Shown: positions 1-57,300, counted from the whole stretch's first letter. The stretch: DNA of 60,550 bases, filler included, from Sphacelaria rigidula (GCA_964200075.2; 5 parts of 5 records of this genome joined end to end with filler, not necessarily neighbours in it); one strand, 5' to 3'. A program made the numbers and translations. The notes: generated from the sequence alone by a model not told the origin.

Positions 1-2737
1 AAAGGACGCCCCCCCCCCCCCCCCCCGGCTGGTGAGGAGGCCCCACCGGAGACACCGTCGGGGGCAGGAAAATTACGTCATTTGGCTTCACATATCTTTG
101 AGATCGCGGAAAATTCTAGCCGCCTAGCACCAGCAACTCGAGTATGTCATCAGTGCACAAAAATCTAAATGTATGGAGGAAAATAAAATACCACTGAATT
201 TTGCGACGTGAATTATAAACGAAGCGGTGAGACAGTGGTGCAGCATTCATAGCGTTCCGTGTGTACCACCCAAGCGCCAGGAGCCACGAGTAGCACGATA
301 ACTAGGTGACGTTATTGAGTGTGGCTTCATCAGCTAGAAAGATTTAACGCAAATCTCGACTCTTCCTCATGCTTCGGTATCACATTGACCAGCCACCGCT
401 GAACGCTCAACGCTTGATGCCGACAGAATAAAGCAAAGCACACATAACGACGCTATGAACCGCAGTCTTGCTTTCACATTTCAGATCCGCTCAATCAACA
501 AGTGTCCGTGCCCAATCTCTATTTCCTTTTTTTCAAGAATATATTGTCTGCGATATTCGTATTTATGCCCAGGTGTGTGCGCTGTGCGGTCATGTACTCG
601 CCTCTCTACCAGCGTCCCCACGGTTATTGTTAGACAGTACCTCACAAATATTTACTTGAGTATGACACATATGTTGGGTGATATAACTGGTTAAAGTGGT
701 TACAAATCGATCAGTTAACCAGTTGTACCAGTTGACTGTAGCTGGTCAGTTGAACTGGCAGTCAGTTCGCAACTCTAGGGACAAATTGTGTAAAGTTTCA
801 GTGTCTGAAGTCGTTAAAACGGCATGAAGTCTTGGTGCGGTTGTGCGATGACGTGAGCGTGCAAACTCCTAATTACTTGGTTGTAGTATGAAAACTTCTC
901 TCTTGCGTGTATTCAACGTCAAGGTGAGAAAATTTGGAAGAGTTCCTCGATCAAACTCTGTACAAATGTCCCTTCGACTAACACATCATTTTTTTCTTTT
1001 ACTTTGAAGCATCCGTTATCGGCTTCCGGGGTTTCCAGTGAGAAGACCGCCGGAAGCCGGTTGAGAACGGAGAAACTTGAAAATATTGTCAAGAATACCA
1101 ATCAACCGTTTGAAGCATCAGTACCTACGGAACTGCCAAGTCTGAGGACGATCTGAGCTTGTCTACGACAAATATAAGGGGGACCGTTTCGAGGCTCCGT
1201 GGGTCTTTTGCGCGTATCACGAGCACAAATCAGACGACACCCAAACCCCACTTCACCAAACCACGGTACAATTCGCCGCCGTCTTGAATGTTTTTAAATC
1301 TGTTTTTCCCCGTTTATTTCTGGAGCTGATGGCGGTTTCAACGGTTTGAGGTATGCGGAGATGAGGTGAAAATTGGGCTTGGATTTTGTACTTTCGAATT
1401 CAGAACAATTTGGAGGGCGCTGATTGGTCGAGGTACCTTTTTACCTTTGGCGCCGCCATTATGGCCTTGAACACAAATCAGGCTATGTCACGCTCTTCAG
1501 CTGGCCACTGCGGGCAGTATGATATAATGTATGCGACTATTGGGAATGTATTGCGTAAGGTATTTTGCTGATGACACAATTTTGGGTGAAAAGCGTGAAA
1601 CAGGGTGTAGGTACTTACCGACAACTTCTTTGTTCCAACATATTGATCCGATAGTTGTCGACAGGCAACTTCAGCTTGCATGGCATTTTCACCCTTGAGT
1701 TAATCGCAGTCAGCTGCTATAAAACTAAAGTTGGCTGTAGGTATGCACGGTGTGACTTTTCACCTTGTGGTGGTGACCGTTGTGTTGTAACCGGGAGTAC
1801 AGAATCAAGACTAACGCATCTCAACACGTACCCTACCCCCCCCGTTGTTGTTGCTGCTGTGCAGGCGTTGTACGACAAGAAGATTGCGGTGTTCACAATC
1901 TCGCTTTTGTGCCGGTGGAGTAAAGGAACCTTCGAACAATTAGTGGAGCCAGGAGAGGATGGGATTGGGGTTGTGGGAGGAGACGCGATGATGGATGATG
2001 ACGAGTAAATGATGGGGGAGGAAACGTCCGCAGTGAGATATTGTGCGACGCTAGAGGTTATTTGCCCTGCGTGAGGCATGTAGCGTGCGCTGCACACGTC
2101 GATCGGTTTTTTGTCTTCCGGCTTGTGGTCCTGCGTCGTGTGGATCGGGTTCCCGACTAAGATGTTTCATTTTCCTTCACGTCCTTGACGTGCAGCCCGC
2201 CCGATGTGCCTGTAGACCTGAAGTGACACGGCTACTGTAGTGTCTTTCTTTACTGCTGTTTTCGTGCGCCATCTTCGTTCGGTGGGTCAATTTGATGTGT
2301 TTTCATGCAAATGTGTGCTGTGTTTTTTTGGGGGGGGGAGGGGAAATCTCTGTCCTCCTGCGATGTTTCCTCACCTTTCGACTCTGTTGGAGCTGTACAA
2401 CTATTTTCTCAAGTTTTTGGACTACTTCCAAGGTTGTTAGATGCTTGCATACTGTATACTTCGTAGAGTGGTTCTGTGGCTTCTTCGAATGATGCCCACA
2501 AGCATGGGGTATTTTTCTATTCGGAACGCTGGGCTGCACCGTACGCCAAATGCGATAGAAAACACGGAATTGCGGGACGGCGCATGCGCGAGGAAATCAC
2601 GGAGTCATGCCTTCGATGCTTTACGTGCGTGATTTTGCATACACTTGTAACTTTTCATTACTACCGTACAAGGACTAACTGGCAATTATCTACAGTACCT
2701 CTATGTTTCATCGCGGCTCTCGCGATGGTGCCCCGCT

Positions 2738-4911: not shown

Positions 4912-5641
4912 CTGGGAGAGGGTGCGACGATCGAGGCAGCAATCAGCTTCAGGTCAAGCCCATTCCAGCAACTAATCTACGCGAGCCTTACGCATATGTC
5001 GCAGAATTGCTGCGCGGCCTACCGTGTCGCGATGATCTGCTTATTTTACCCAACATCACCGCAGATGGCACATACCATATTTCCAAAGGATTCACATTTC
5101 CGTCCGCCCTGCACAGCGGGCATGCTAGTAAGTAGCGGCCGCATACGATGTTATTCCAGGATACACACAGCAGAAAGTTATTCCTGGTGAACTTTGTCAG
5201 CGAAACAAGTTGCACAACGAGTTCGGTAGTAGCTTTAGGTACTCGTGTTTTTTTTACAGAAAAGCAATACATCAATGATGAGAAATGAACGCTTCCCCAA
5301 ACTACATTTCGGGGCCAAATCGAAACATTGGTACCACACGTGTGCCCATATTAATGTCAAGCACCCCTTCCGACGATGTCATCCACTGAGGTCCACGAAT
5401 GATGAGTGGAAATTCGTATGCATTGCAGTCGGCAAGAGTTTAAAGGAGAGTCGTGGTTGGGATATCAGCTATTGCTCACCAAAACCCGTGGGTACACACT
5501 TGGCAAAATGACGCCAGCTAAACACCTCAGTGTCATAATTGTGCAGTAGCATCACCGCAATAAATAGTCGAATCACTGAGTACAAACCTACCCCCCGCAA
5601 CACAGATCCACAATACGGGGTCTCTCAACGCGTGCACTTAC

Positions 5642-8600
5642 CCTTGGGTTGAAGTCCTTCGCTCGATGCCGAGTTCTCACTAGTTGCGCCACCGCCGCTA
5701 ACGACCCCGAACAGCTGTACTCCTGCGGGAACATCACAAGACTCCAACGACCCCGCACCCTTCCTCGTCTGCTTCACCGCCTTGTGCACCACCTGATTGC
5801 AATGTGTAATGCCGACAGACAGGCTAGACAGCGCCGCCACACTCCACGAGGCATGAATCCCTACCTCTCTTCGTTCGGCCCTCCCACGCTCGGGCTCAGT
5901 AAGAGCCACAGCAAGCGCCCGCCGCACCCTCCGCACGAGCTTGGGCGCGCCGACACCCCTGGTGAGCACCTCCGCCTTCCGCAATGGCCCCTTTGCTCCA
6001 GAGATGTCGCCGGAATCTAGGTGCATCCGTCCCAATCGATAGAGAGCAGCTGCCCGCACAAGAACAGGAGCTCCGTCCGCGCTGGCGCATTTTTGCAGCA
6101 AATCTCTCGCGGTTGCAGAGTTTCCCAGGAGATACGACGTGCGCCCTTGATGGAGACGGAGCATGGAAAGGATTTCGAGGGCACGCCACCCGAGATCGCA
6201 CTCCTCCCCTCTAACATCCCCGAGATCGACAGTTGCAGCGGCGTGTTCGAGCTTCAACGCGCTATCGACTCGTACACCACCCCAGGCGGTCGCCTCCATC
6301 AGCGGGGCGAGGGCTGTATGTCCGCGATCGCATGCAGAGAGGGCCCCGGTGAAGTCACCTTGTCGCCGAAGCACGTCGGATTCGATCACGAGCAGCTCGG
6401 CTGCACTCAGAGAAAATTCACGACAGCGGAGACACAGTCCTCCGGCAGATGCGGCCACCGTCGGAGGTGGCTTTGTCTTCACCTTGCCCTTGGGGACTTC
6501 GGTCTTCGCTCCTGCCCGTTTTGGCCCTCTTCCCTTGGCCGAGGGTGCTGAAGAAGGTTCTGGCTGTTTAGCGAATAGCCGTTTGCAGGTCGCGCAATCT
6601 GATGGAACGGTTTTCGGTGATGCCAAGACCATCTCATCTCGCCGTTCTTGCTCTAGCAGCGTCTGACACGCTCCAAGAAGGCGATTTGCACGATCAAAAT
6701 GATGAGTTTGCACGGCAACCTCCACCTCCTCTCGGAGACAGCTTCGCAGTAGACGGGAGGCGCGCAGCGGCTCACTGACGACACATCCCTGTCGTAGGTA
6801 CCCGCTCGCCTTTGACGCGAAGCCTCTCGCTCGCCACAGCCGGCCCATACGCGCCAACCCTTCCAGATAGACTGGTATCCACCTAGAGCTCAGGGCCAGT
6901 CCTCCTTGCTGCCGTTTTCCGATCGAGGCTTCAACCTCTCGACTGTCGTCGCCCACCCCCTCCTCTGCTTGACCGAACCCCCCTGCCGTGGCCTGCGCTC
7001 CTGGACGCTCGTCGTGAACGGACGCGCCTTTGGATGCTGAGAGTGAGACAACTTGTCTGTCCGACTCGAAGAACGGGCCTCCGCAAGACGCCCACGCGTG
7101 GCACAACTGCAGCACGTGCCTCAGCTCTCCCACTGCCTCGGCTAATCGCCCACACCTTTCGTATAGCCACGACAAACTTAACCCTACCATGCACTCCAGA
7201 AACGCTGCTGTCTCGCGGTTGTCCACCTTTCTCTCGCCCGACACTGCTCGCCTGGCTTCGAGCAGCGCCTTTTCCGCCTCGATTGCGCCTCCCGTTCGTT
7301 CCCCCAGGCACAGCCCACGCAGCGTATCTGCAGATACCCGAGCCGCTTCAACGTCGGCGAGTTCAGCATGTACTTGGCATTCCTCCACATCCATGAGCTC
7401 GCCCAGTTTGTCTTCAACGGCCGCGCTGAAAATATGCACAAGCTTGGGAATGCCCGCCGAGTGATAGGCGACACCGATAGTGCTCAATATACCGACTGTC
7501 GAAGCAGCGGTCGCGGGAGGTTCAACAGGCTCCATGCTTGCTTGCTGCGCCTCCGATAGCACTACTTTGAGTTCCGCCGATTTAACCATGCGCCGCGTGT
7601 CCCTGTGCAACGTGTAATGGGCCTCAAGAACCTCGAGACTGGAAACGACAGCAGAGGTATCGGCAAGTTCGATTGTGAGAGGATGCAGACCCTTTGGGCT
7701 TCCAGCACAGCTCTTCACGGCGTCGTCGAGTGAATCAAGCGCGGTGTGCATAGCTTCCTTCACACCATCGCCTGGGTCTGCGAGGTCGCGCAAGAGCATC
7801 GCACGAATACATGCGCACACGCCTGCAATGGCCTTTGAAGATGGTGTTCGACCATGCTTGTCGCTCACAGTAGTCGCAGATCCTCCAACAGTGCGTTCGA
7901 TGCCAGCGTGAAGGTCAGCCATGACTGCTGCACTGCCCTCACAACTTTCGCCGGCGTCCAACCCCTTGCGTGCGGCAACATTTACCAGGAAAAGATCGTG
8001 CTCAAACCATGCAGACAAAACCCGCGCTTGTGCTTCCCAGTGGTCCTTGCGAGGAATGTCTGCCGTCGTTCTGCTACCTGTGCACATCCTCAGCACCGCC
8101 TCTGTCGCACGTCGAGATCCTTCAACACAAGCCAGCAGGGTGGCGCTAGGGACACCGGCGGTGGCTTCGGTGCTTTCTGGGACATGCAGCGGTAAGTGCG
8201 TACGGTACGCGCAGCACTCGGCCAGAAGCACCCAGGCAACCGCTGCAGCCGGTACCCTCCTCCGCAGGAGGCTTTTGTCCAAGTCTTGACTCAAGCCCGT
8301 TTTACCATCGGTGGCAGGATGCAAATAATTCCCGTCCGTGAGGTAGGCCATCGCCTGGGCTACAGCAGTACCTATTTCTTCTTCAGCTTCTGGCGTCGGC
8401 AGCGATGCGTCGGACGCAAAGCCGCGACCTGCACCCTTCGGATTACGCAAATCCGTTATGCGAAGCCTGCATGCCACATGCCTCTCAACAAGAGCTTGAA
8501 GACTGGTGGTGTTTTCCAGACGGCCATCAGAGGACACGTTCCATAGGTCGGGGCAAAATGCCAGGGCCCTAGCAACTGCCGCGGCAGCGGCCGCGAACTC

Positions 8601-10099
8601 TCCAGACTCAATGAATACCTTGCTAAGCTTTGACAGACGCACATCGAGTTGAACCAAACGAAGAATTTCTACATGGGCAGCACGCACACCATCACCACCA
8701 TCGTCTGCTTCAGCGCTCGGCGTCTCTTTCACCCAGCTCTCAAGCACACGACATCCTCGAACAAGTGCATCGAGACCCACGGCCACCTTGCCGCCGTCGA
8801 GCAATGCCTGTCCGAGCCCAAACCACCCTGCCCCGACTCGTCGAGTATGCTGCGGGGTGAGTGCGTCGCCCTCACACATGCCTTCGGCGGCCATTAGCGC
8901 CTCGCGAGCACTATCCTCACGTGACCTTTCTGCGGCAATGCTTCGTACGCTTCCTGCGTCCACAGCAGGCAGGATTTGTGTGACACTAGAGAGAGCGTTC
9001 AGGTAGGTGAGCGCAGAACGAAGGTAGCTGTCGAACCCCAGCTCCGCAAGCGTACTTACAGCAGGTATCTTATCCTGCACACTTCGAGGCGCGCGTTCAC
9101 TAAAAGACGCTATGTTCCAGCTCAGGTCTCCCAAAAGTTGCAAACCCCTTTGGTATAACGCTGACCATGCCGTCAATCCAAGCCCGTCACCTCCCACAGG
9201 GTCCTGTGCCTTAACTTTTTCCACCCATGTCGCCGTGATGGCACACGATTTTTGGGTCCATTTCCACGCTTTAACGACAGAACCGACAAACCCACTGGTA
9301 CCCGTCTCCACCCCGACCGTCTTACCCTTCGCTCCCTTGGCCGACGCTAGGGTCTCCAGATAATCGCGGACGATCCCCAAATACCCTAAACCCCGGTCGA
9401 TAGAAGTGTGAATGAGAGCGGAACATGTCGGGTCGGGACTACTGGCCGCCCGGTTGCCTACTCGGGGCTTGGCTTTGGCTGCCTGCCGCTTCGCAGGTGC
9501 AGTAGCCACCTCAGCGCGATGAAAGGGTCTCGAGCTATTAGCCGACGTGGTCGCGGCTGCGTGAATCTTGAGCATGCCGGAGTAGGCAGCGTACACAACG
9601 CCGGCTCTACCGCAGTTCTCCTTCTCTCCTTCCGTCGCTTGTTTCGAGCAGCGCCGGACATACTCGTAGGCGAGCTGCAGCAGACGCTGCGCCTCGAGCC
9701 CGTCTCCAACCTTCTCCAGTAACCCCACGGTGTACTGCAACCAATCGACCCAAGCAGGCTGAAAATCCATTCTACCCCTGCCCCCGCCCCCGTCGTTTGC
9801 AGGCCAGTCCTCACCCTCCTTAGAGCAAAGCACCTGCAGACAGAACGTTGACAGCTCCGCGGCTTCATCGAAATTTGCAGGCTTATCATTGTTTCCGCTC
9901 CGACGTTCCAATGACAACGAAGCACGGTGAGCATGAGCCACGAAATCGCCGGCGCTCCAGCCCCTGTCCTGCCGCGCAAAAAGTTCCAATGCCATTCGCC
10001 GACCCGCGAGGCATTCACGCACTCGAGCGCCAATGCTTGGTTTTTCAAAGGCGGAACATGCCCTCCAGAGAAGCTTGAACAGGTGATCTCGGTAGGCCT
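5642..10099 (-). CDS. ESP1: Separase, penultimate 4458-bp exon (helical/TPR-like N-terminal region); gene 5' exons not identified
   Basis: Open frame of about 1485 codons. It is bounded by a pyrimidine-rich acceptor (ttttactttcctgctcgcag|AG GCC) at 10100 and a GTAAGT donor after CCC AAG G at 5641. Both ends are phase 1 and join in frame to the C50 exon. The protein is Ala/Leu-rich with TPR-like segments (AAALYRLGRMHLDSGDISGAKGPLRKA). Confidence 0.85.
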
Positions 10100-12031: not shown

Positions 12032-12131
12032 NNNNNNNNNNNNNNNNNNNNNNNNNNNNNNNNNNNNNNNNNNNNTTAATTAATTAANNNNNNNNNNNNN
12101 NNNNNNNNNNNNNNNNNNNNNNNNNNNNNNN
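12032..12131. other. Synthetic spacer N44-TTAATTAATTAA-N44 (segment junction 1)
   Basis: Identical 100-nt block recurring every ~12,130 nt. The core puts stop codons in all six frames. Confidence 0.97.
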
Positions 12132-24162: not shown

Positions 24163-24262
24163 NNNNNNNNNNNNNNNNNNNNNNNNNNNNNNNNNNNNNN
24201 NNNNNNTTAATTAATTAANNNNNNNNNNNNNNNNNNNNNNNNNNNNNNNNNNNNNNNNNNNN
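24163..24262. other. Synthetic spacer (segment junction 2)
   Basis: N44-TTAATTAATTAA-N44. Confidence 0.97.
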
Positions 24263-27352: not shown

Positions 27353-28246
27353 TCCCCCCTCCCCGCCCCCTCCCACGGCCCTCTCGTTATATCAATATCC
27401 ATGTTTGACGACACGTTTGGGGTTTGTCCCCTTCTCAAATCCTTGAGCGCCAGATGTCACACATAGAACCCTAGGCGAGCCAACGAAGAGATATGAAGAC
27501 ATTTGCTTCGGTTCAATACAAAACATGATTAGGTGTTCAGGGGGGTCACTGAATACACGGCATGCAGTAATTTGGGGTGGCACTTGCAAAACATCTAATA
27601 ATTGGGCAGCCACAACGTCGGGGCTACCGACATTGAAGTTCAGCCTACGATATTACCGCGAAAGATGGTCTGATGGTCAAAGCTATACACTATGCGAAGT
27701 ACTAGATTTGTTCACACAGCACCTGGCTCGGCGGTGCCCACTGGTGTGTGTCTGTATTTACTCTGCTACCCTGAATCCCTTGGGCTCTTTACCTCTTTTT
27801 TTTTGCTCTTTCCTTTCCTCGAATTTTTTTGTTTTGTTTTAGATCGGCCCTTTCTTTCTGTGCTTTGTTTTTGTTGACTTTTTTTATTCACGTCTTAGTC
27901 CACTTACCATGTCATTCTGGATTGACGCTACGGTAGAGGTACACAAATATTTAGCGAGGTGAAAACCGTGAGGAGCCCTTCATCTCATCCAAAACACGAC
28001 TTATGAAATATGTGAGAGTACGCCACGATTACTGTTCCAACGTGCCAGGGATATCCCGACTGGATTTGCGAACGAGGATGCCCTGACCCATATTCTTGTG
28101 CATCTAGAAGCGTTAGGGGCCCCTGAACCAGACAACATTTTGAGCAGAAAGTGCACCCCTACCGTCTACCGTAGCATTGCTCTCTGTTCGACTTTTCATG
28201 TTCCTTCTTTATCTTCAGCGAGTGATTCATTTTATTTTTATTAGAC

Positions 28247-28318
28247 ACGTCTATCATGTGACCACGGCTGGATCATGACCCCTGGAGGGTCAGTTAAAGT
28301 GCGACAATCAAAATCAGC
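28247..28318 (+). mobile_element. Retroposon 3' end with CAAT-type tail
   Basis: Homologous to the minus-strand copy at 15225-15300. Confidence 0.6.
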
Positions 28319-28449
28319 ACCGCTGTTGGGTTGAGTGACTTTTGATTGAATCCAGGGTGCCGCTTTTCGCCAAATATCCGGGTTTATTTCCGTAAAAATG
28401 ACACAACGGGAGTGCAAGCTGTGAAAAGTGGTGCCTTTCAGTGACGGGA

Positions 28450-28510
28450 ATTGATTGATTGATTGATTGTAACGGTAATTGATTTGATTGATTGATTGAT
28501 TGATTGATTG
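28450..28510. repeat. Interrupted (GATT)n microsatellite
   Basis: Read directly from the sequence. Probably the tail of a minus-strand retroposon. Confidence 0.9.
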
Positions 28511-28799
28511 AGTACATGTGGCAATAACGGGTTCGTGACAGTATTTCGCCGTGAAAGTAATCACCGCGCAGAAACAAGCACATGCGACGACACAGCGTCG
28601 CCGACAGCACGGAGTCTGTGTGCACAGCGAGAACTGAGACGAGAAGTCGATGAGTCATGACCAGATTGAGAGATGGAGATCTCAATCACAGCGGTCGTGC
28701 CTACAAACAGAATACACCGGCCGAACGGGAATTCTCCACCATGATATCGGACTATATATGCACAGAATTCGACTTAACGGTCGACGAGGTAAAGGAACT

Positions 28800-28990
28800 G
28801 CTGAACCCCTCTCGCGACAAAAAGGAAAGGCAAGCACCGCAGAAGCAAGGTGGAGGACTAAAACAAAAAAATCGCAAAAAAAAAAAACGGAGTTGGCCTT
28901 CCTCCTGTCTGACCCCGGCTGGTGCACCCACATACACCGAAAGGTGTTGACCGGCGTCTAGGGTAGATGGGATAACAACACACACATACA
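28800..28990 (+). mobile_element. Non-LTR retroelement 3' end with (CA)n tail
   Basis: ccttcctcctg..tgaccc...ccgaaaggtgt.gac.ggcgtctagg.taga.ggga...caacacacaca matches the minus-strand copy at 42046-42200. Confidence 0.65.
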
Positions 28991-29283
28991 CATATGCGCA
29001 GTACATTCTGCTTTTTAGAGGCTAGACCCAAACGTGTTGGGCCTCGAAACAAAATAGCGGGAATCGTGATACCCACACACACCAACATCCCATCCGACAG
29101 GAAGCCATTTTCGGTTTTCGGTGGCATTGATCAATGGGGGTGATTTTTGCTTCGTCAGAAATCTGCCGGAGGCTCAAGCCACATGTTGTCCACGAAGCAG
29201 GTTACGTGCCATAACAAGGTGGGTGTGGGTGGCGCAAGACTGCACACATCTTGTTCGGAGCTTGTACCCACCCATGACAATTT

Positions 29284-29360
29284 GGGGGTAGATGTGGGAA
29301 CAACCACATAAAAGGAAAATATTCCTACAAGCGCCCGTCGAGAACTCAGCTTTTCACATC
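29284..29360 (-). repeat. Dispersed repeat end terminating in a C-run (copy 1)
   Basis: The minus strand reads tgtgaaaagctgagttctcgacgggcgcttgtaggaat...gttcccacatctaccccc. Homologous to 29792-29875. Confidence 0.6.
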
Positions 29361-29449
29361 GGCGACACCATGAGATATCTCGCATGCTTCATGGACACAA
29401 CATCCCGGATTCGAATCCCCGCTCCCACCAAAAAGCGACCCGAAGTTAA

Positions 29450-29556
29450 CCCTTAGGGACCTCACTGACGATTTTTGTTTTTGAGAATCGGCATCATTTT
29501 GACTCGAAATGATGCCGATTCACAAAAACAAAAATCGTCAGTGGGGTCCCTAAGGA
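29450..29556. mobile_element. piggyBac-like palindromic MITE, 107 bp, TTAA TSD
   Basis: TTAA|CCCTTAGGGACCTCACTGACGATTTTTGTTTTTG...CAAAAACAAAAATCGTCAGTGGGGTCCCTAAGGA|TTAA forms a near-perfect hairpin. Confidence 0.85.
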
Positions 29557-29791
29557 TTAACTCGGGACGAAAAAGTCGCGAAAATGGTGGGAGACCACAC
29601 AACTGGAGGATGGCTTCGAAGCAGAGTTCAGAGACTAACGGGGAAATCTTCTACGGAGATTGTTGGCTTGGGGACCCAACACAAGTAGAAGGTATGTGAA
29701 ATATGGTGTACATCCTCACCGCTAGCCGGCGAAATAGGTTACTCCTACAGGACTCTTCTCATTGCAAAAACGAAAGCAGACGCCTATAAAA

Positions 29792-29875
29792 GGGGGGGGG
29801 GGGGGTGATGTGGGAACCACCATATAGAGCGGGAAAACTCCCATAAGTATCCGTCGAGGAATCACCTTTTCACAA
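29792..29875 (-). repeat. Dispersed repeat end terminating in a C-run (copy 2)
   Basis: Homologous to 29284-29360. On the minus strand it ends gttcccacatca followed by about 14 C. Confidence 0.6.
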
Positions 29876-30244
29876 AGAGTGTTCATAGGATGGAAATGAA
29901 GCGGCCTTTTTGGGGGTTTAATGGTCTTTAACTGTCTTTGAAAATTCAAGAGCCTGACGTCCACAGCGCACAGAAGACATGGACACACAACCACATGAGC
30001 ACATCACAAAAATCACGGGAGAAGGAGTGACAAAAAGTCGCCTCAATCCACGCACCAAAAACGATCTAACGATCTAACACATTTTCACAGTGAACAACCA
30101 CAAAATCGCAAATACATCTGAATGACACACTATGTCCCACACCCACACGAAAATAATCGCAAAATGCGACTGGCTCACAAAATGGAATCCCCCCCCCCCT
30201 TCCCCCTCCTCCTTCAACCGGCCTGCCCCTCCCGCTCTTATCTA

Positions 30245-33200
30245 CTACACCACAGCTCCTCCTCCTTGATGAAGCCGCAACGCCTGATATATTTCACCAA
30301 CCTTGCCCATCACGGAGAGTGCTTCCCTCGCCGTGGCCAGCTGCGGTCCGTCTCGCACCCACGCTACTCCTAACGCCCGCGCCGAGTCACTCGCGTCATG
30401 CACGGCTTGTCTCAGCGGATGTAACTCCCGCGAAAGTGCTTCAGCCGCCTCACCCCGGATTTCAACATCATCCTGGCAGTCCTTGCTCTGCAACATTGCG
30501 CCTGCTCGACGCAGCAGGGCCTCGCGAACAAGCGGCGACATGGATTCGTGCGAGCATGTCACGGTGATCTCAACCGTCTTCTCTGCTCGTCGGCCCCGCA
30601 GCCCTGCCGCCTCCGCACCGCCTCCCGCGCCGGAACTCCCTCGTACCGTTGACGTTGTCTTAAAATCCGAACTACAGGTGGCACGAAAGACGGCGACTTG
30701 CCCAGCCACCCGCACAGCGGCGACCTCTGCCGAATCGTCACCGCTACGCGCACGCTCTGAGCGCACGCTCGCCACGGGCGCGAGGGGGGTATGGTGTGCT
30801 TGGGTGAAAGATGGATTTCTCGAAGTTCCTAATAAGCGCGCCAACAGGTCTCCCGTGTTGCTATCGGTGCTTGCCACAACCAGGCGAAAATTCCTCCAGG
30901 CCGCCGGTAGTATTCGCGTCCCCACCGGAGCAATAGAAGACATGGAAAAATTCGACGCGAAAGCTCTTCCCCCCTTATTTCGTGGTCCGCTGATAGGGGA
31001 CTTGCCGTTGTTCTCAAGGACGTCCACCACAGCCATCTGTGGCCCGCAAAAAGATGCTCCCCGACCGGGTGCAGCCGCTCGAACGGCCGCCGTGCTAGCG
31101 GGGACGGACGGGAGTGGGAGACTCCAGTCGAGGATGTCAAAGCGCGCGCTACCAAGCTCGACACACACTCCTTTCGCTGAATCGGTCACACGCGTGGCAC
31201 CAACACATGCTCCGGCAATTACTCTGTGGGCAGCAGCGACGCCGTCTGCAGCACCCGCCGATACGCACACATTTCCTCCAGCAAACAGAAACTGTAGCCA
31301 ACTTATGGTTACAACCGGGCGGGCAGAGGGAAGCGTGACGGGCACAGACGTGCTCCATGTCCGCCCCTGACGCAAAGACGACATCGGCACAGCTGCTGAC
31401 GTCGACCAAGCCCATCCCTCCGCTGTGGCTCTATTTTCTATGCCCCCTCCTCGGCCGGCTGCCGTCGCAGTCTCCGACAGTATTTGGGTTGTCAGGAACC
31501 ACCGACCGATCCCCTCCGCTCCCGGTTCGGGCAGGTTGGTCGCGCGAGCCCCATCAAGGCTCCAAAGTCGTACATGCAACCGCACGCGCAGGGTACCGCC
31601 GGCCCCTCCCGACGCTTCTTCTGACGAGGCGTTCACTTGCTCCACATCTGGACTCATCGACACCGCATACCCGAAGGAAGGAGACACGGCTCCTCCGTCC
31701 CAGTCTCCGCCGCCGGCAACGAGCGTCGGGATAAGCCTGGTTGCTCCTCGGAGAATGCGAAGTTCGTCATCTCTTTTCGCCGATTCCGCAGAGAGCGCCG
31801 CACACTGCAAACCTACATTGGACAGTCTCTCCAACTGGCACCTGACCCTGCGTTCAATTCCGGCAGTTCCACCCACCCTAACCCCGCCCTTTCCTGTGTC
31901 CAGTCCCCATCCTTGTAGCTCCTCCGGAGACTCTGGGGCAAGAAAGCCGATAAGCCTACCGCGTGCTGACAGGGACATGACGAGGGTGCGCTCTGATGCC
32001 AACATTGCCAGCGAAGGTGTCCCCGTGCGCGTCCCTTTGTCCCCAGTCAGTACGCGCGCCACCGCTATATCAATAGTTTCGCACGGCAGTGGCAAACGCA
32101 CTGGTCGCAAGCACAACTTGGTGCCGAAGCTATCCAACAACTCACCACCGGTGCTTCGCATGTCCCATCTGTCGAGGTTTCCTTCGTCAGACAATTCATC
32201 CTGAGGTATCGCACTCGCAAAAAGCGCACCTGCATGACAATGAACAAGAAAACCGGGGGTTGCGCATCCCGCAGATATTCTGAATGGTAGCTGGAAATCT
32301 CTACGCCGGAGACACGGCAAAGGTGTCTCTTCCAGCTGGTCTCTGTCCGCGGAGGTGGATTCTCCACCGGGACCACCCCTGCCTCCGACTCCTGTCTCTG
32401 GCCTCACTCTCTTTCGCGACCCCCGTCGCGGCATATCAGCGAGGCTTACGACCACACCCTTCGCTCCAACCACCAAGAGTCCAATCGTTTTCCCTCTCGA
32501 ATCTATCCGCGGGTTGATCGTAACTACTGCTTGATCGCCAAGACGGATCAGAATACCCCCGCCAACTCCCGGACACCGATGAAGCGGTGCCCATCGCACA
32601 CTCCCCGATTGGTCACCAACGAGGAGCACCGCGGGACCTTTCGCGGGGTCTTCCGGCGGAAGGGCCACGCGGGCTTTGCTGTTGCCATCGCTGGCCACTG
32701 CTGGCGATTTCGTCTGCTGGGGTGGAAACGGAGTCGCCCATAGTGCGAGCTCCGCCCCAAATAACGCCGTAAACACCCGGCGCGGCAATGAAAACCCGCT
32801 TTTGGTATTCCTGATGGTGTTGGCGCCTACTATGTCTGCCCTCCTCGCATCGCCACCACCGCCGCTTGCACCTTCTTGGTCCTCATCGGACCACACCACA
32901 GCTACCGTTGTTGGGGCGGCGCCATCCACTCCACCTAAAGTTGAGAGAAACCGCGTACCCCTACTCGGAGAAGCATCACAAGCGACGCCAGTTTCCCCAA
33001 GGACAGAGGGCAGCCGATACAAAGATGCCCGGTCTACTATCCCGACGATGGCAGCGGTGCTTCCCGGGCAAGTAGCTACGCGACGCGCGCCGAAGTGGGT
33101 ACAGATTGCCCAGCGATCCTGAGCGAGGAGCACTAAACCACCCAAGGACGTGCCGCCGACCGAAGCGCCTTTGTCGACACAACTCTGTCCTTGCTGTGGT

Positions 33201-33889
33201 TGTTCAATAGAGGGCGAGGTGTCGTAAGCGATGGTCGGCGCCATGTCGTCAAAAATGCCCAATTCGTGGGCTCGAGTCGAGGATGCAGCCGGAATTCGGG
33301 AAGTGCCGTTGTCGCTACTTCGCTTCTTTTTAGAAATTTGTTCACCACACTCTGTTGCTGTTGCTTCCGTATAGGACGAAGTATCGGCGGTTGGGCCACG
33401 CTTGCCTTCTAGTACCTCCGCAGCAGGTAGGGCGTACGTTGTCCCGTCTCTACAGACAACTACACAAAGGAACAGCAGCTGGCCCGCTCGCGGCGCGCGT
33501 GGCGGCAGCAGACCCGCTACATCCACGATGGGGGAGCTAAACTCAATTATCCGGCAGAGCCTACGGCCCAGAAACAAGTGCAACGTGCACGGCTGCGCCT
33601 TCACCGCAAAGATGACATCTGAGAGTTGAGGAGCACTGCTATTGCCACCGCTTTCCTCACCCGCTGCCCGCTTGTGCCCTACACCAGCAAGGGAATCTCC
33701 TGTGCCTTCACCGCAGTTTAGGTATCTAACGAAGGGACTACTGCTACCGCGCATAGTTACGGTTGCTTCTGGGGCCAGCACTACTGAGAAAGGTCGAGGC
33801 CGCGAAGTTCTTACCGCTGCCTCGTGATCATCGTCGACGTCGTTATGGTGGGCAGCAACAGCAGCAGTGACAGGTCCATTCTTCATCAT
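30245..33889 (-). CDS. FAAP100: Intronless 1214-aa protein resembling Fanconi anaemia core complex-associated protein 100
   Basis: Long ATG-initiated ORF. Its motifs are colinear with my recollection of vertebrate FAAP100: VFTALFGAELAL..AVLLVGDQSGSV (cf. LFGADA.L..SPV.LCGLPDGQL), LVMSLSARGRL (cf. LLALSAKGRL), coiled coil RVRCQLERLSNVG..LSAESAKRDDEL (cf. KIKELLSGIGNISER...QRNKAL), GVCVELGSARFDILD (cf. GVCLPL..HTVDMLQ) and C-terminal IYQALR (cf. VYRQLR). The coding status is near certain; the name rests on recalled similarity, not a search. Confidence 0.72.
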   Translation of the reverse strand: MMKNGPVTAAVAAHHNDVDDDHEAAVRTSRPRPFSVVLAPEATVTMRGSSSPFVRYLNCGEGTGDSLAGVGHKRAAGEESGGNSSAPQLSDVIFAVKAQPCTLHLFLGRRLCRIIEFSSPIVDVAGLLPPRAPRAGQLLFLCVVVCRDGTTYALPAAEVLEGKRGPTADTSSYTEATATECGEQISKKKRSSDNGTSRIPAASSTRAHELGIFDDMAPTIAYDTSPSIEQPQQGQSCVDKGASVGGTSLGGLVLLAQDRWAICTHFGARRVATCPGSTAAIVGIVDRASLYRLPSVLGETGVACDASPSRGTRFLSTLGGVDGAAPTTVAVVWSDEDQEGASGGGGDARRADIVGANTIRNTKSGFSLPRRVFTALFGAELALWATPFPPQQTKSPAVASDGNSKARVALPPEDPAKGPAVLLVGDQSGSVRWAPLHRCPGVGGGILIRLGDQAVVTINPRIDSRGKTIGLLVVGAKGVVVSLADMPRRGSRKRVRPETGVGGRGGPGGESTSADRDQLEETPLPCLRRRDFQLPFRISAGCATPGFLVHCHAGALFASAIPQDELSDEGNLDRWDMRSTGGELLDSFGTKLCLRPVRLPLPCETIDIAVARVLTGDKGTRTGTPSLAMLASERTLVMSLSARGRLIGFLAPESPEELQGWGLDTGKGGVRVGGTAGIERRVRCQLERLSNVGLQCAALSAESAKRDDELRILRGATRLIPTLVAGGGDWDGGAVSPSFGYAVSMSPDVEQVNASSEEASGGAGGTLRVRLHVRLWSLDGARATNLPEPGAEGIGRWFLTTQILSETATAAGRGGGIENRATAEGWAWSTSAAVPMSSLRQGRTWSTSVPVTLPSARPVVTISWLQFLFAGGNVCVSAGAADGVAAAHRVIAGACVGATRVTDSAKGVCVELGSARFDILDWSLPLPSVPASTAAVRAAAPGRGASFCGPQMAVVDVLENNGKSPISGPRNKGGRAFASNFSMSSIAPVGTRILPAAWRNFRLVVASTDSNTGDLLARLLGTSRNPSFTQAHHTPLAPVASVRSERARSGDDSAEVAAVRVAGQVAVFRATCSSDFKTTSTVRGSSGAGGGAEAAGLRGRRAEKTVEITVTCSHESMSPLVREALLRRAGAMLQSKDCQDDVEIRGEAAEALSRELHPLRQAVHDASDSARALGVAWVRDGPQLATAREALSVMGKVGEIYQALRLHQGGGAVV

Positions 33890-34571
33890 TTGAAAAATGT
33901 TTGGGGCGTTGCTTGCAGTTGTTGCGGGGAGGAGCTAGCCCTTTGAGTAAAAATACCCACAACACCATTAGGAATATCTATACTTGTGATGTACCATACT
34001 ATGATCCTTCTGCTGCGTTGATGGGCAGGCTCACGCAGAGCAACACATCACGTGTAGCCCCGCAGGACGGAGACTTTACACTAGCCCAAGTACTCAGACC
34101 CGCGGTCAGACAAGGATAATATCGATTTGGAAACTGCGACATAGAGCTGGACGTCAACAGAGCGAGGCTTCGCCTCACTTGACTACAATCTGAACCGTGG
34201 ACATGAAAGATTATTTCCCGTACTCAGGCATCAAGTATATATTCATATTTCTCGTCGCAGCTGTAGCGACATACTGTCTGTAGAATCTTCCCGCGCTGCT
34301 CAAAAATAGACGGTGCGACTGGTCATCATTGGCCAAGGTTGCGGCGAGTCTATTATTATTGTTCTGAAAATACAAGTTGTAGTGCAGTTACAGAGAAGAT
34401 GTTGGATGTTGCCAGCCCGGTGCTGTGCTGCTCACTTTCCCAGCCAGCTAGAACTTTCCTACTCGAGTGTCAATCGCACCGTGACTCAGGGGTGTTTCTG
34501 TCGACGTTGGATGTAGGAGATAAATTGCACCCGCAACACGCTAATTCTGAGATAACCTAGAACAGCGTCCC

Positions 34572-34648
34572 ATGACGGACATGGACATTCCTACGCCAGA
34601 TCCCGTTCCTGGTGCGATGCGGGATAAAAGCCAAGATCAACAGCGGCC

Positions 34649-34681
<33 letters not shown>

Positions 34682-35327
34682 ATCGAGAGCAACTCATACG
34701 CGGGGTGGCGTCGCTTTGGCAGTGCTCGCTACGCTGGTAGTAGCCGTGTTGCTGTATGCCTCGCAACAGGGCAACAATAGTGATACTTGTCGTGTGTATT
34801 TCACCTTCCCGTATGCCTCGTCGACGATGTCAATGGATCGGACGAACTTGTTCAATCGACCGTTAGAGTGCGTCTCCACAACAACTGCAGTTGCACCGGT
34901 GATGGCGGCGGTAACCTTGGCAATACTCTTGCTGTTATTCGCGAGCAAGGTCCTAGTAGAGGCAAGGCTAGCCTCGAAGGTCCGCCGCAAGCTGCGCGAG
35001 AAACTGGAGGACTCTTTCGATCGCCCATCTTGTGTCGCGTCGAGCTGGGTGCGGGCGGGTGTTACCGTCGTCACCGTAGGCGTCGGGCGTGTAAGAGTAG
35101 CTGCTACTGCTGCAACACTGACATCGAACGAGCAAGATGAGTTGCGGCCGACAATTGGATGGGTCGAGGATGAGGCACATGACCGGATGGGCCAGTATGG
35201 CGGCGGCAGTAGCGGCAGTGGTGGTGGTGATGATGATGTCGGTGGTGAAGCGTCACCTGGTGATGGTCCTGACCTCTTGACGGTGAGAGGTTTTGTTGTT
35301 CGCGAGTTGTGTCTGTACGCAGACTGA
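34572..35327 (+). CDS. Hypothetical 251-aa protein with polyQ tract and two predicted transmembrane segments
   Basis: ATG-initiated ORF with a (CAG)10 tract, hydrophobic stretches GGVALAVLATLVVAVLLYA and VMAAVTLAILLLLFA, and a Gly/Asp-rich tail. No homology recognised. Confidence 0.5.
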
Positions 35328-35555
35328 CTCTCACCATTTTGCCTCTGTGAAGGTTCAGTTCGTCCGTGCAGTATATCTGTGTATTATGTCTTGAGCGAGT
35401 CTATTCGCCCGTGACCCTTGGCTACTTCCATGGTACTTACTCTCTGCAGCATGACGTCGCTTACAGGCAGTAGGTGGCCCTTAATGAAAATGTTAGGATT
35501 GCCCGGTCTCAGTACACACACACATATATTTCATGTAGAAACGAACTCTGCTTAG

Positions 35556-35556
<1 letters not shown>

Positions 35557-35587
<31 letters not shown>

Positions 35588-35650
35588 CGTTGTTGTTGCT
35601 ATTGTCTTCACAACACAGATTGCCCCAATCCATGAGCATCTCTACATTCA
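35557..35650 (-). repeat. (GTT)n microsatellite, likely the (CAA)n tail of a minus-strand retroposon
   Basis: The minus strand reads ...ggattggggcaatctgtgttgtgaagacaatagcaacaacaac... Confidence 0.7.
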
Positions 35651-35667
35651 TGTATATCATCGCATGA

Positions 35668-35872
35668 GGCCGTATCTTAGTTCCTTTCTTCGCACATTAG
35701 TTTTCGATCGAAATGGTGCAGCGGAAAGCAAAAATCCCGATCTGATAGATCGTAATTTCAACCATCGTCGTCAATTTTGAAGATGGTTGAAATCATGACC
35801 TATCAGATCAGGATTTTGTTTTCCACCGCACTTTTTCGATCGAAAACTCATGTGCTACAGTAAGACAGGCCC
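35668..35872. mobile_element. Short Harbinger/Tourist-like MITE (~205 bp)
   Basis: tga|GGCCGTATCTTA...gttttcgatcgaaa ... tttcgatcgaaaac...TAAGACAGGCCC|tta. It shares the TTCGATCGAA subterminal motif with 12824-13644. Confidence 0.6.
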
Positions 35873-36292
35873 TTATCAAATTGTTGTCGTGTCGAAAACG
35901 TGCGGTCGAATCGAATTCGCTCATTTCTGATTCGTCCACTCTATTCATATTCTCAGATTTTTGAGAACATGAATGCCGTGGACGTATCAGGTACGAGCAA
36001 ATTCGATTCCGCCGTACGTTTGTCAGTCGAAAACATTTTGATCCAGCCGGCACCAGCGCTGGCCAAATAACAGAACCTGCCAGCAGAGTAGAACCAGTCT
36101 CACATTGCATTTGTGCGGACCGGCCGGTCCAACCAACCCCATTTTTGAATCCACCCGAGCACAACAGAGCCGGCACACCATTTTTTGAACGCACCCGCAC
36201 AAAACAGAGCAGGGATATAGGGCACTGAGACCGCATGTAGCGGCCACGGGGGAACACAGAGTTTCTCCTCTATGAAAATGCCAGTCTTCCTA

Positions 36293-36392
36293 NNNNNNNN
36301 NNNNNNNNNNNNNNNNNNNNNNNNNNNNNNNNNNNNTTAATTAATTAANNNNNNNNNNNNNNNNNNNNNNNNNNNNNNNNNNNNNNNNNNNN
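36293..36392. other. Synthetic spacer (segment junction 3)
   Basis: N44-TTAATTAATTAA-N44. Confidence 0.97.
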
Positions 36393-48421: not shown

Positions 48422-48521
48422 NNNNNNNNNNNNNNNNNNNNNNNNNNNNNNNNNNNNNNNNNNNNTTAATTAATTAANNNNNNNNNNNNNNNNNNNNNNN
48501 NNNNNNNNNNNNNNNNNNNNN
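48422..48521. other. Synthetic spacer (segment junction 4)
   Basis: N44-TTAATTAATTAA-N44. Confidence 0.97.
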
Positions 48522-54309: not shown

Positions 54310-57300
54310 ATGAAGGAATTTCCGCTGCTCCCCTGATGCACATCCCCTTCGAGACGTGCGTCACAGAGCCTGCCGCACCAAACACCACATCTCCGGCGGA
54401 GTCAGTACATTGTGTCGATGAACCTTATTTCGATCTCGCCTCTGCTACTTCACCCCAGGTCCACACCATCGATCCTGCCCAGTCAAATTCCGATTCTCCT
54501 GCTGAAGTGCTTCAACGTTTTTCACCAGATTCCCGGAATAGCTTCTTGCACATGTGGGACCAACTGCCGCCACACATGCGCGACATCAATTTTGACCTTC
54601 ATGGGCCCGGCTGGGAACCGGCAGCATCCAAGAACTCAGTGCTGTTCTGCTACAGTACCAACACCAATTTTCTCGATCCAAAAGGATCTTGGGCATTGAA
54701 AAACACTGCCCTTTGAGGTTACCCTCCAACCCGGTGTCTCGCCGATCTCTTCTCGACCATAGCGTACCAATCCAATACTTACCAAGAAAGTTAACGCCAT
54801 CTTGGATGCGTATCTGGGAGCGGGACTAATACAACATTCCTCCTCTCCTTGGGCCTCGCCACTTGTGGTCGTCCCCAAAAAGGATGGAAACATACGCATC
54901 ACCGTGAATTATCAACGGTTGAACCACGTCTCTGTCGTCGGTAAAGTTCCGATTCCCCGAATTGATAAAGTCTTCGACTCCTTAGGCGAAGGCAAAATAT
55001 TCAGCACCTTCGACCTCGCTTCTGGATTTTTCAGAATGCTATACACCCTGACACAGTCCCACTGACGGCTTTTTGCACCTCGTCCGGACTCTATGAGTGG
55101 CTTCGCATGCCACGAGGCGCTGCCACTGCCCCGGGATGCTTGCAACGCTTAATGCAACGCGTTACCGAGGGCCTCGAGCACACCATCATGTACTTGGATG
55201 ACGCTATCGCTTTCGATGCCTCACCTATTGCACATATACGCTCTCTGCGAGAATTTCTCTGTCGCCTACGTGCGCACGATTTGAAACTGTCTCCATCCAA
55301 AGCTCGCCTTGGCGCGACTGACTTGGATTCTTGGGGCATGCCAATTCGCCAGTAGGCCTGCATCCGGATACAAACAAAGTCAAGGCGATGACTGATTTGC
55401 CGATGCCAACTAACATTTCTCAACTTTGCTCATTGTTGGGTGAGCTATCCTACTACCGTAAATGTTTGTCGAACTTATCGAAACGGATTCGCCCCCTCAC
55501 TGAGCTACTCAAGAAAGGAGCCGTGTTTTCTTTCACCACAGAAATGGAGACTATCACCCGCGAAATACTCAAGACGCTCACCGAAAAAGCCCGTACTTAG
55601 CTGTCCTGATTGGGAGGCAGTACAAGATGGCTCCCGCCTTTTCCAACCCCATACTGACGCCAGCACAAATGTATTTGGAGAAGTTTTGAATCAACCTCAG
55701 GTTGATGGCTCTGTCCGACCCATCCTTTATATCAGCTGCGCTACCCTGCCCAACGAGGCCAATTGGAGCCCGCTAGAACTGGAATGTGGAGTAATCACTT
55801 GGGCCATTAAGCGCCTTCGACAATATCTGTTTCACATGCCCTTCGATCTATACGGATCACGGAGCACTTGAGCAACTCGCCAAGGTTGGTGAACACAACC
55901 CTCGTGTACAACGATGGTTGAAATTTCTAACAGCATACCAGTATACCATTAAGCACCGTCCAGGCAAAACCAACGGGAACGCGGATCTTCTTTTCCGCCT
56001 GCCTCTGCCGCCTACGGCCGCAGATTCCAGCTCGGCTTGCCGTTTATCGGAACCCGATGAACCCGGAATTTACGCGATCAGACGTTCTTCAACGCCCGTT
56101 TACGCCCTCGACCTCCAGTGCCCGGAAACAGGTATGCATATGAGAGGACCTCGCCCTCTACCATATGACGCTATCCTGGGTGGGTTAAAGCCCACTACCC
56201 CCGATTTTGTCCATTTTCGCACTTTCGGTACTCGCACGAAACTCTTCGCGGAGACACCCCCAGTCACCCACCTTATCTCCGATAACACCCGCTCCCGGTC
56301 CGCCGCCCGCATCACACCGAGTGCCTCGCCGCCACCGACAACACCTGCAACCGCTACGAGCCACCCGACACAAGCTCCGCGGACCAAAACGCTCCGCGAA
56401 AACTTCTGCACCGTGCACCACGCGCCGCGGACAACCTTCGCCGCGCACTGAAACAACCCCGCCGCCAATGACGGCGCCGCAAACATCTTCTGCCCCCGAG
56501 CACGGAACTGACGCCTTGTCTCCTGCTCTCGAGACAGACATTGACGTCGGCATTTCTGCCCCGTCGCCTGTTCCCCCGCCGCCTGCCCTACCATGTTTGG
56601 TCGGCTCGCCAGCGGAAGGCCAACTACGCGAGTTTCTCGCCAGCTGCTCCCACCGTGAATGGGGCTCGTGAACAAAACGCAGAACTGCTATGTCGCGCAG
56701 CCATCCGGTACTTACAGCTTGACTGTCCAGTCCCTTTTCCGTCCACACTTCTGGCCCCGGTTGGGACACTGCCACCGCCAGTTATTTCTGACGTATACGA
56801 TCTCGTGCGTAAAGACACCCTTTTTACTACCGATGAAGGCGTGCAACTACTCGTACGTCGGCCCACGCCCTTGGCACGCGCAATTGCCGCTTCAACTACG
56901 GGACGCACCGCTCGACTACTCAATGACGAACCAACGCGCATATATGTGCCATTATTAATGCGCCCCTGGGTCATGAAAGGCTGCCATACAGAGTTGTCAT
57001 GCCAACTTGGCGTCACCCGCATCCTCGCGCTCTTGGAACGCTTCTACTGGTGGGTGGGCATGGAAATTTTAACCCGTTTCCGGATTCGGCGATGCTGTCA
57101 ATGCCAAGCCCGAAAACCTTCACGACAGACAGTACGCTGGCCCGTGATCTCTATGGGACTCCCCGACGAGCCCGGCCACCTTATGTCCTTTGACTACTTC
57201 GGCCCTCTCCCGACCACAGGTCGCGGCAACACCTATATCTTACTCTTCACTGACCGCTTTAGCCGCCACGTGTCCATGTACGCGGTAACCGCCGCAGATT

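Follow-up and report, generated by a model that had tools for sequence, protein, structure and literature searches.

In this study, we describe a gene in a window of 60,550 nucleotides from the brown alga Sphacelaria rigidula (GCA_964200075.2); the window is the whole stretch of DNA that was analysed and joins five parts of the genome end to end with filler. The gene lies on the minus strand at 30245..33889 and, judged from structure models, encodes a structural and probably remote homolog in the FAAP100/FANCB superfamily that appears closest to FAAP100, a subunit of the Fanconi anaemia (FA) core ligase. The gene is real and conserved, and its predicted fold, the order of its domains and its best structural match, which is found in the FA core complex structure 7KZP (chains P and Q), are established.

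We generated two template-free AlphaFold2 models, where model 1 covers residues 15-1214 and is based on 22 sequences, and model 2 covers residues 651-1214 and is based on 27 sequences including distant members of the family. Both models have one layout, in which a beta-propeller is followed by a helix of ~40 residues, then a beta-sandwich, then an alpha/beta domain and lastly C-terminal helices. The N-terminal WD40-type propeller spans residues ~33-650 (31940..33793, on the minus strand like all domains) and contains inserts at residues 162-250, 385-416, 490-522 and 565-589 that are long, poorly conserved, disordered and of low confidence. A linker helix and a long coiled-coil-type helix (residues 651-717, 31739..31939; long helix at 678-717) are supported by both the models and the conservation; the long helix comprises 40-43 residues directly after the propeller and corresponds to positions 664-703 of model 1 and 25-67 of model 2. 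The beta-sandwich (residues 739-917, 31139..31675) has a variable loop at residues 871-906 and is defined by strands in both models and by the alignments to chain P. The alpha/beta domain (residues 933-1137, 30479..31093), with two disordered loops, is defined by the secondary structure of model 2 and an alignment to chain P. Finally, a C-terminal helical hairpin or bundle (residues 1141-1210, 30260..30469) is defined by the helices of model 2, where three helices are found at positions 467-487, 491-530 and 534-560, the last two with a predicted local distance difference test (pLDDT) of ~78-81. The initial annotation of this DNA, which was made from the sequence, had described a beta-rich N-terminal half, a central coiled coil, a region resembling a beta-sandwich and a helical C-terminus, and this order is borne out by the AlphaFold2/DSSP secondary structure. 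The order in the models is also the one published for FAAP100 and FANCB, which in the accessible text of one study is given as beta-propeller, long coiled coil, beta-sandwich, alpha/beta domain and C-terminal helical region (10.1101/2020.05.01.072751), and in that of another as WD40 domain, long helix that takes part in an intermolecular coiled coil, beta sandwich, alpha/beta domain and helical bundle (10.1101/854158).

The models were compared to 350,542 PDB chains with Foldseek. For model 1, the best matches are 7kzp_P and 7kzp_Q (E 1.9e-18, 1137-1166 columns, 12% identity), and the next best are BBSome chains (6vbu_7 at 2.2e-8, 6vbu_1 at 1.9e-7, 6xt9_I at 3.3e-7 and 6vbu_2 at 1.1e-6). The search with residues 651-1214 matters most, since this propeller-free module is the family-specific part of the protein. 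Here, 7kzp_Q (9.1e-9) and 7kzp_P (3.2e-8) are matched over 551-556 columns, and only three matches are found at E<=1e-3, of which the third is a COPI gamma appendage domain (4.4e-4). Further appendage and ApaG-type sandwiches follow from 1.3e-3, and no BBSome chain occurs in the top 50 of this list. An FA core chain ranks first in all four structure searches, by wide margins. The initial annotation had suggested a comparison of an AlphaFold model with the FA core structures, with the BBS2/7/9 families as a possible better match; it is the FA core chain that matches best, and BBS2/7/9 are clearly worse. In the alignment of model 1 to 7kzp_P, model positions 19..909 are aligned to chain positions 5..653, and in the VIA alignment of model 2, positions 23..491 are aligned to chain positions 446..820. 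The C-terminal helices lie within the Foldseek span (551-556 of 564 columns), whereas the VIA alignment ends at model residue 491; alone, these helices match generic hairpins only. The training set of AlphaFold2 is older than the FA core structures, whose releases in the PDB copy that we used date from 2020-09 and 2021-03. It is thus unlikely that the match was memorised.

A feature search in the ESM Atlas points in the same direction. For the whole protein, the top five clusters are FAAP100/FANCB clusters at 0.93, with 211-216 of 256 features in common, and an oomycete cluster (1277 amino acids; FANCB_N in 13% of its members) is found at 0.91. For residues 651-1214, the top named cluster is FAAP100 at 0.91 and the FANCB-bearing clusters score 0.76-0.82. 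Clusters of BBS proteins rank lower: PTHB1 is found only at rank 15 (0.79) with the whole protein and BBS2 only at rank 8 (0.76) with residues 651-1214.

The gene itself consists of an uninterrupted ATG-to-stop open reading frame (ORF) of 1214 codons plus stop. Its translation is shared at 1201 of 1214 positions with an 'unnamed protein product' of Sphacelaria rigidula, which confirms the stramenopile origin proposed in the initial annotation, and all differences fall at a single annotated gap of 12 residues. At this gap, the public gene model splices out 36 nucleotides in frame (30641-30676, residues 1072-1083); this mini-intron starts with GT and ends with AG in the genome and sits in a predicted disordered loop of the alpha/beta domain. 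We mapped contigs from four public sequencing runs on 27500-36300. In three of these (X1, X3 and X7), a single contig without gaps is colinear with the genome over the ORF (30234-34047, 30300-34086 and 30223-34047, respectively), and the contig of the fourth, large run (X5) spans 29793-34634. No contig of the four runs contains a joint inside the ORF, including at the mini-intron. The mini-intron is thus unsupported and looks like a gene-caller artefact, so that the gene can still be called intronless on the present evidence. The G+C content is 0.57-0.60 in the ORF region compared to 0.48-0.50 in the flanks. The region also contains two long ORFs on the plus strand (355 and 259 amino acids), which we read as shadows of the GC-rich frame on the minus strand.

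The protein belongs to a family with full-length members in other brown algae. A phmmer-type search scored 8000 candidates, of which 26 proteins reached E<=0.001; none of them has a Pfam domain, and all named matches come from brown algae, namely Laminaria, Ascophyllum, Scytosiphon, Ectocarpus (e.g. Esi_0010_0048) and Pylaiella. The full-length brown-algal orthologs have 37-85% identity and are conserved over the whole length, at 41-85% identity to the window protein, in an alignment of 22 rows, which omits, from the 26 matches, the database copy of the window protein (P0002) and the fragments P0024-P0027 (772-826 amino acids). A profile hidden Markov model (HMM) was searched against 1,835,955,588 representative proteins and yielded 25 matches at E<=0.001. 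Seven of these were looked up, of which two are metagenomic 'hypothetical proteins' and five have species names, namely Choristocarpus and Discosporangium as well as Chrysoparadoxa, Phaeothamnion and Tribonema minus (KAG5178570.1), the latter three being close relatives of the brown algae. A broadened alignment, which omits from the 25 matches the partial P0018 and the fragments P0028, P0034 and P0036-P0040, was used as a profile against a collection of 5.8 billion proteins (E<=10, 7999 candidates). This search resulted in 27 matches, all of them family members at E<=3.4e-156; nothing outside the family was found, and no match carries a Pfam domain. At the sensitivity of HMMER, and as far as the matches are named, the family does not extend beyond brown algae and the photosynthetic stramenopiles that are closest to them.

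Conservation within the family tracks the predicted fold. The majority identity is highest in residues 651-717 (0.87), followed by the C-terminal helices (0.68) and the beta-sandwich (0.62), and it is ~0.3 in the predicted loops. Residues 651-717 are the most conserved segment of the protein, and the best-conserved window of 20 residues begins at residue 668. Together, the full-length orthologs and the conservation that follows the fold show that the ORF is not a chance frame. The initial annotation had tentatively lined up five motifs with FAAP100: LFGAELAL (residues 376-383), SLSARGRL (639-646), GVCVEL (907-912), FDILD (917-921) and IYQALR (1200-1205, in the C-terminal helices). Each of these occurs once, in the order proposed, and all are largely conserved in the 22-row alignment. 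We also observed that the public models from Ectocarpus and Pylaiella (P0019-P0023, 938-955 amino acids) are without the first ~250-330 residues, which correspond to the first propeller blades and which other brown algae do have. We attribute this to a probable mis-annotation of the N-termini rather than to a true loss.

Several results weigh against an assignment to FAAP100, and most of them concern the sequence. With the window protein, no Pfam family at all was found at E<=10. The FANCAA family was detected in none of the 22 family members and in none of 11 more distant proteins at E<=1, where no FANCB or BBS family was found either. Furthermore, no FA core chain was found at E<=10 in five PDB searches with phmmer and with profiles, and the profile HMM search of 1,835,955,588 proteins gave no named match outside the brown-algal relatives. 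The models are of modest confidence: model 1 has a mean pLDDT of 52, with ordered blocks at 70-90 and about half of the residues below 50, and model 2 has a mean pLDDT of 64 and a predicted template modelling score of 0.57. The alignments to 7kzp_P and 7kzp_Q have a global root-mean-square deviation of 8-29 Å at 12-16% identity, and the identity of these two chains as FAAP100 is itself an inference. In the Atlas, the recognition value is low (1285 compared to the 2300 usual for known families), so that the Atlas result is a lead only. Lastly, BBS2, BBS7 and BBS9 also have a propeller, a coiled coil and a beta-sandwich, then an alpha/beta platform and a helical tail in the same order as the algal protein, and thus the domain architecture alone is not unique to FAAP100 and FANCB.

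The Pfam and PDB sequence searches gave only chance-level matches. In Pfam, these are DAGK_cat (0.22), Mobilization_B (0.92), SOG2 (0.056), T2SSM_b (0.011) and DsbD_2 (0.001). The PDB phmmer search with the Chrysoparadoxa member matched solely an LNX PDZ domain (E 0.14), and the PDB profile search with the broadened alignment solely a helix of 65 residues from SIKE1 (E 0.068). The profile match to Pfam FANCAA or to FA core proteins for which the initial annotation had proposed to search was thus not observed in Pfam, PDB phmmer or PDB profile searches at E<=10, and the protein is not filed in Pfam PF15146 (FANCAA). The proposal of a FAAP100-like protein therefore stands by structure and fails by sequence profile. 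An identity as BBS2, BBS7 or BBS9 was rejected, as the Foldseek scores are worse and no BBS family of Pfam matched either the protein (E<=10) or the 22 members (E<=1). Taking both sides together, we consider it reasonably likely, given the models, that the gene encodes a remote homolog of FAAP100 and thereby a member of the FAAP100/FANCB superfamily, whose scaffolds have five domains. The description as a new FAAP100/FANCB-like protein that is invisible to sequence searches, and that annotates an orphan gene family of brown algae, is partly supported.

What the protein might do can be proposed by analogy. In the human complex, according to the accessible text of one study, FANCB and FAAP100 are intertwined along all five domains, and FANCL docks with its RWD1 and RWD2 domains onto the intermolecular coiled coil that the two form (10.1101/854158). 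By this analogy, the algal protein would pair with a FANCB-like partner via its helix and beta-sandwich, and would present the coiled coil to the RING ligase FANCL, which would dock there with its RWD domains. The resulting catalytic hub might then monoubiquitinate FANCD2-FANCI when crosslinks are repaired, in replication-stress repair or in meiotic recombination. Conservation is by far the strongest in residues 651-717, which fits an interface with several partners; we thus propose that the protein may be the FAAP100-type half of a hub like that of the FA core, with a FANCL-type RING ligase bound to it. We infer orthology rather than a merely common fold, and likewise each partner interaction and the role in the pathway; brown algae would then have an FA core module. 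A two-copy prediction of self-association with residues 670-1140 gave a score of 0.00, where the fold of the partner is uncertain, and speaks neither for nor against binding.

An alternative is that the protein is of the FANCB type, or that it is unassignable to either paralog; even so, an FA-like ligase would have it as a subunit of its hub. FANCB and FAAP100 have the five domains in common, the Atlas neighbours include FANCB clusters at 0.93 next to the oomycete FANCB_N cluster at 0.91, and none of the papers that we examined on the FA core complex gives the chain letters of 7KZP. We take chains P and Q to be FAAP100 on four grounds. The depositing laboratory shortens FAAP100 to 'P100', for instance in 'FANC-B-P100-L hub' in the accessible part of its text (10.1101/854158). 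The algal helix aligns to a helix of chain P that starts near chain residue 446, which fits the coiled coil of human FAAP100 at residues 455-497 (available JCI 2025 supplement text) and its FANCAA region, which in the accessible text of PMC12126235 starts beyond residue 448 and is 432 residues long. The third and fourth grounds are that FAAP100 clusters come first in the Atlas for the whole protein and also for residues 651-1214. Of 7KZP, the top 10 of both Foldseek lists, taken without filtering, contain only P and Q, which are copies of a single subunit, and hence presumably not FANCB. Any further chain of this structure thus has an E-value above 4.1e-6 with the whole model and above 3.7e-3 with the C-terminal module, which indicates that the protein is much closer to the P/Q subunit than to its paralog. 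Residues 651-1214 also discriminate in the Atlas, as FAAP100 scores above the FANCB-bearing clusters there. For comparison, human FANCB and FAAP100 have no detectable sequence similarity to each other, according to the accessible text of PMC12126235. We consider this alternative, whether FANCB-type or unassignable, unlikely.

Two other explanations depart further from a FAAP100-type subunit. The family might be a lineage-specific scaffold of propeller, coiled coil and appendage-like domains that has only an ancient architecture in common with FAAP100/FANCB and BBS2/7/9 and that serves another process, such as coat or ciliary trafficking. In favour of this, brown algae have cells with flagella, the searches gave no link by sequence to FA proteins, and the next-best matches of the whole model are BBSome subunits at 2.2e-8 to 1.1e-6. 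However, the FA core chain is ahead of these by 10 orders of magnitude, and the PTHB1 and BBS2 clusters rank low in the Atlas. The BBS2, BBS7 and PTHB1 families are recognisable by sequence across eukaryotes, and none of them has a Pfam match in the 22 members at E<=1. Such a scaffold therefore appears improbable. Alternatively, brown algae might have a single FAAP100/FANCB-like protein in place of the two vertebrate paralogs, with a hub that is a homodimer. This would agree with the absence of a second paralog per species among the named sequence matches, for instance in Ectocarpus siliculosus, where only Esi_0010_0048 is found. However, because the human paralogs lack detectable sequence similarity (accessible text of PMC12126235), our sequence searches would not have revealed a second paralog in brown algae. 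Furthermore, oomycete proteins with FANCB_N exist, which suggests that both paralogs may be old in stramenopiles. We regard the homodimer as very unlikely and prefer a FAAP100-type subunit.

The assignment bears on the age of the FA core. In the accessible text of one study, FAAP100 is said to have 'recognizable homologs only in vertebrates' and is likened to an orphan gene (PMC12126235), and the FA core ensemble has been suggested to have likely arisen in the vertebrate ancestor (PMC11061109). Work on plant FANCC-E-F has argued that the complex goes back to the eukaryotic ancestor (PMC10085685). The literature that we searched contains nothing that joins Fanconi and Ectocarpus, and mentions FAAP100 together with an alga only in the plant FANCC study. 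The available text of the JCI 2025 supplement does not mention Ectocarpus, stramenopiles, algae or Phytophthora; its Supplemental Figure 14 may list non-vertebrate FANCAA-like proteins. In the Atlas, clusters with FANCAA or FANCB matches of Pfam include nematodes, arthropods and the oomycete cluster (13% of members). The family is thus wider than the papers state, which tempers the surprise of a brown-algal member.

We tentatively suggest, with some doubt, that a FAAP100-type hub scaffold could predate vertebrates and be at least as old as the common ancestor that stramenopiles share with animals, near the last eukaryotic common ancestor. It could have survived, unrecognisable by sequence, in brown algae and their relatives, and these might run a multi-subunit ligase of the FA core type, in the boldest form on a single self-pairing scaffold from before the duplication. 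A protein with the FAAP100 fold in brown algae, xanthophytes and relatives would support the ancient-origin view for the catalytic hub, and it would imply that FA core subunits are under-counted by surveys based on sequence. It would also provide a testable functional annotation for an orphan family, including Esi_0010_0048 of Ectocarpus, and a bait for the remaining members of the complex in a genetically tractable lineage.

The gene is apparently transcribed. In the small runs X1, X3 and X7, the depth is 55-72 over the gene compared to 0-5 in unique flanking bins, whereas the depth of X5 is flat at ~62 over the same bins. From this depth pattern we read X1, X3 and X7 as RNA-derived; no run covering the locus is recorded as RNA, and the automated RNA label is a guess only. 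The colinear contigs of high depth from these three runs together extend over 30223..34086 (minus strand), including ~160-200 nucleotides upstream of the ATG, and probably represent the transcript body. Separate contigs at 29802-30194 may be the 3' untranslated region of the gene.

A divergent neighbouring ORF lies on the plus strand at 34572-35327. It encodes 251 amino acids with a poly-Gln tract and hydrophobic stretches and has no Pfam match. The small RNA-like runs cover it at 34689-35282, where an exon-like piece of 594 nucleotides belongs to contigs of 1775-2896 nucleotides. Probably, this ORF forms a single exon of a gene that is expressed and spliced and has an upstream region of ~500-700 nucleotides in common with the FAAP100-like gene. 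Very high-copy repeats flank the gene at 27794-29557 and 35732-36300, with a summed X5 contig depth of 30,000-288,000 compared to ~62 over the gene and with many short alternative joints.

Elsewhere in the window, two adjoining long ORFs are found on the minus strand at 2738-10022. The ORF at 2741-4942 matches Peptidase_C50 (E 5e-72) together with pieces of SAP and CHAT, and the ORF at 5628-10022 (1465 amino acids) has a TPR match only; they probably belong to a single separase gene, as exons or other parts of it. The FAAP100-like gene and these separase-like ORFs alike are coding stretches that are unusually long and uninterrupted for a brown alga. On the plus strand, a retroelement remnant lies at 56541-58383, where the ORF at 56541-57917 has matches to Integrase_H2C2 (E 9e-9) and, short of the curated cut-off, to rve (E 1e-6). 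Runs of 44 N occur in pairs, with 12 bases between the two, every ~12,130 bases (12032-12131, 24163-24262, 36293-36392 and 48422-48521), and their even spacing suggests masking or scaffolding and not biology.

When comparing the algal protein to known systems, we find partial likeness to several scaffolds. The pair of beta-sandwich and alpha/beta domain (residues 739-1137, 30479-31675) resembles the appendage domains of adaptin and COPI. The COPI gamma and AP2 alpha appendage domains (1PZD, 1R4X, 9QPQ_H and 1W80) match in these two domains only, without propeller, coiled coil and helical bundle, and score far below the FA core chain. FAAP100 is presumably also appendage-like in this pair. BBS2, BBS7 and BBS9/PTHB1 (PDB 6VBU, 6XT9 and 6VNW) form the second-best group for the whole model, at 2e-8 to 1e-6 compared to 1.9e-18. 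These likenesses hint at a deep relationship of the FA hub scaffolds with coat or BBSome proteins; we found no literature that structurally links FANCB or FAAP100 to BBS2 or BBS9, and the co-mentions appear, by their titles and abstracts, to be gene-panel or network studies.

FANCB, which is represented in Pfam by FANCB_N, FANCB_middle and FANCB_C, has the five-domain architecture that is predicted for the algal protein, where the C-terminal bundle is putative, and its clusters are among the Atlas neighbours but score lower for the C-terminal module. The helical-bundle insertion of FANCB binds FANCA, as stated in the accessible text of 10.1101/854158. Human FAAP100 differs from the algal protein in having no detectable sequence similarity to it, with 12-16% identity in the structural alignments. 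The algal protein is also ~330 residues longer than human FAAP100, for which a length of 881 amino acids was derived from the 432-residue FANCAA region starting at ~448; this excess consists mostly of Gly/Ala/Ser-rich inserts of low confidence and poor conservation. In other respects human FAAP100 is probably the closest known protein. Its domains correspond in order to those predicted for the algal protein, with the C-terminal helical bundle as a putative fifth, the FAAP100 clusters are the nearest language-model neighbours, and the long algal helix aligns from chain residue ~446, near the human coiled coil and the start of FANCAA. If chains P and Q of 7KZP are FAAP100, as we argue above, it is also the best structural match for the whole protein as well as for the propeller-free module.

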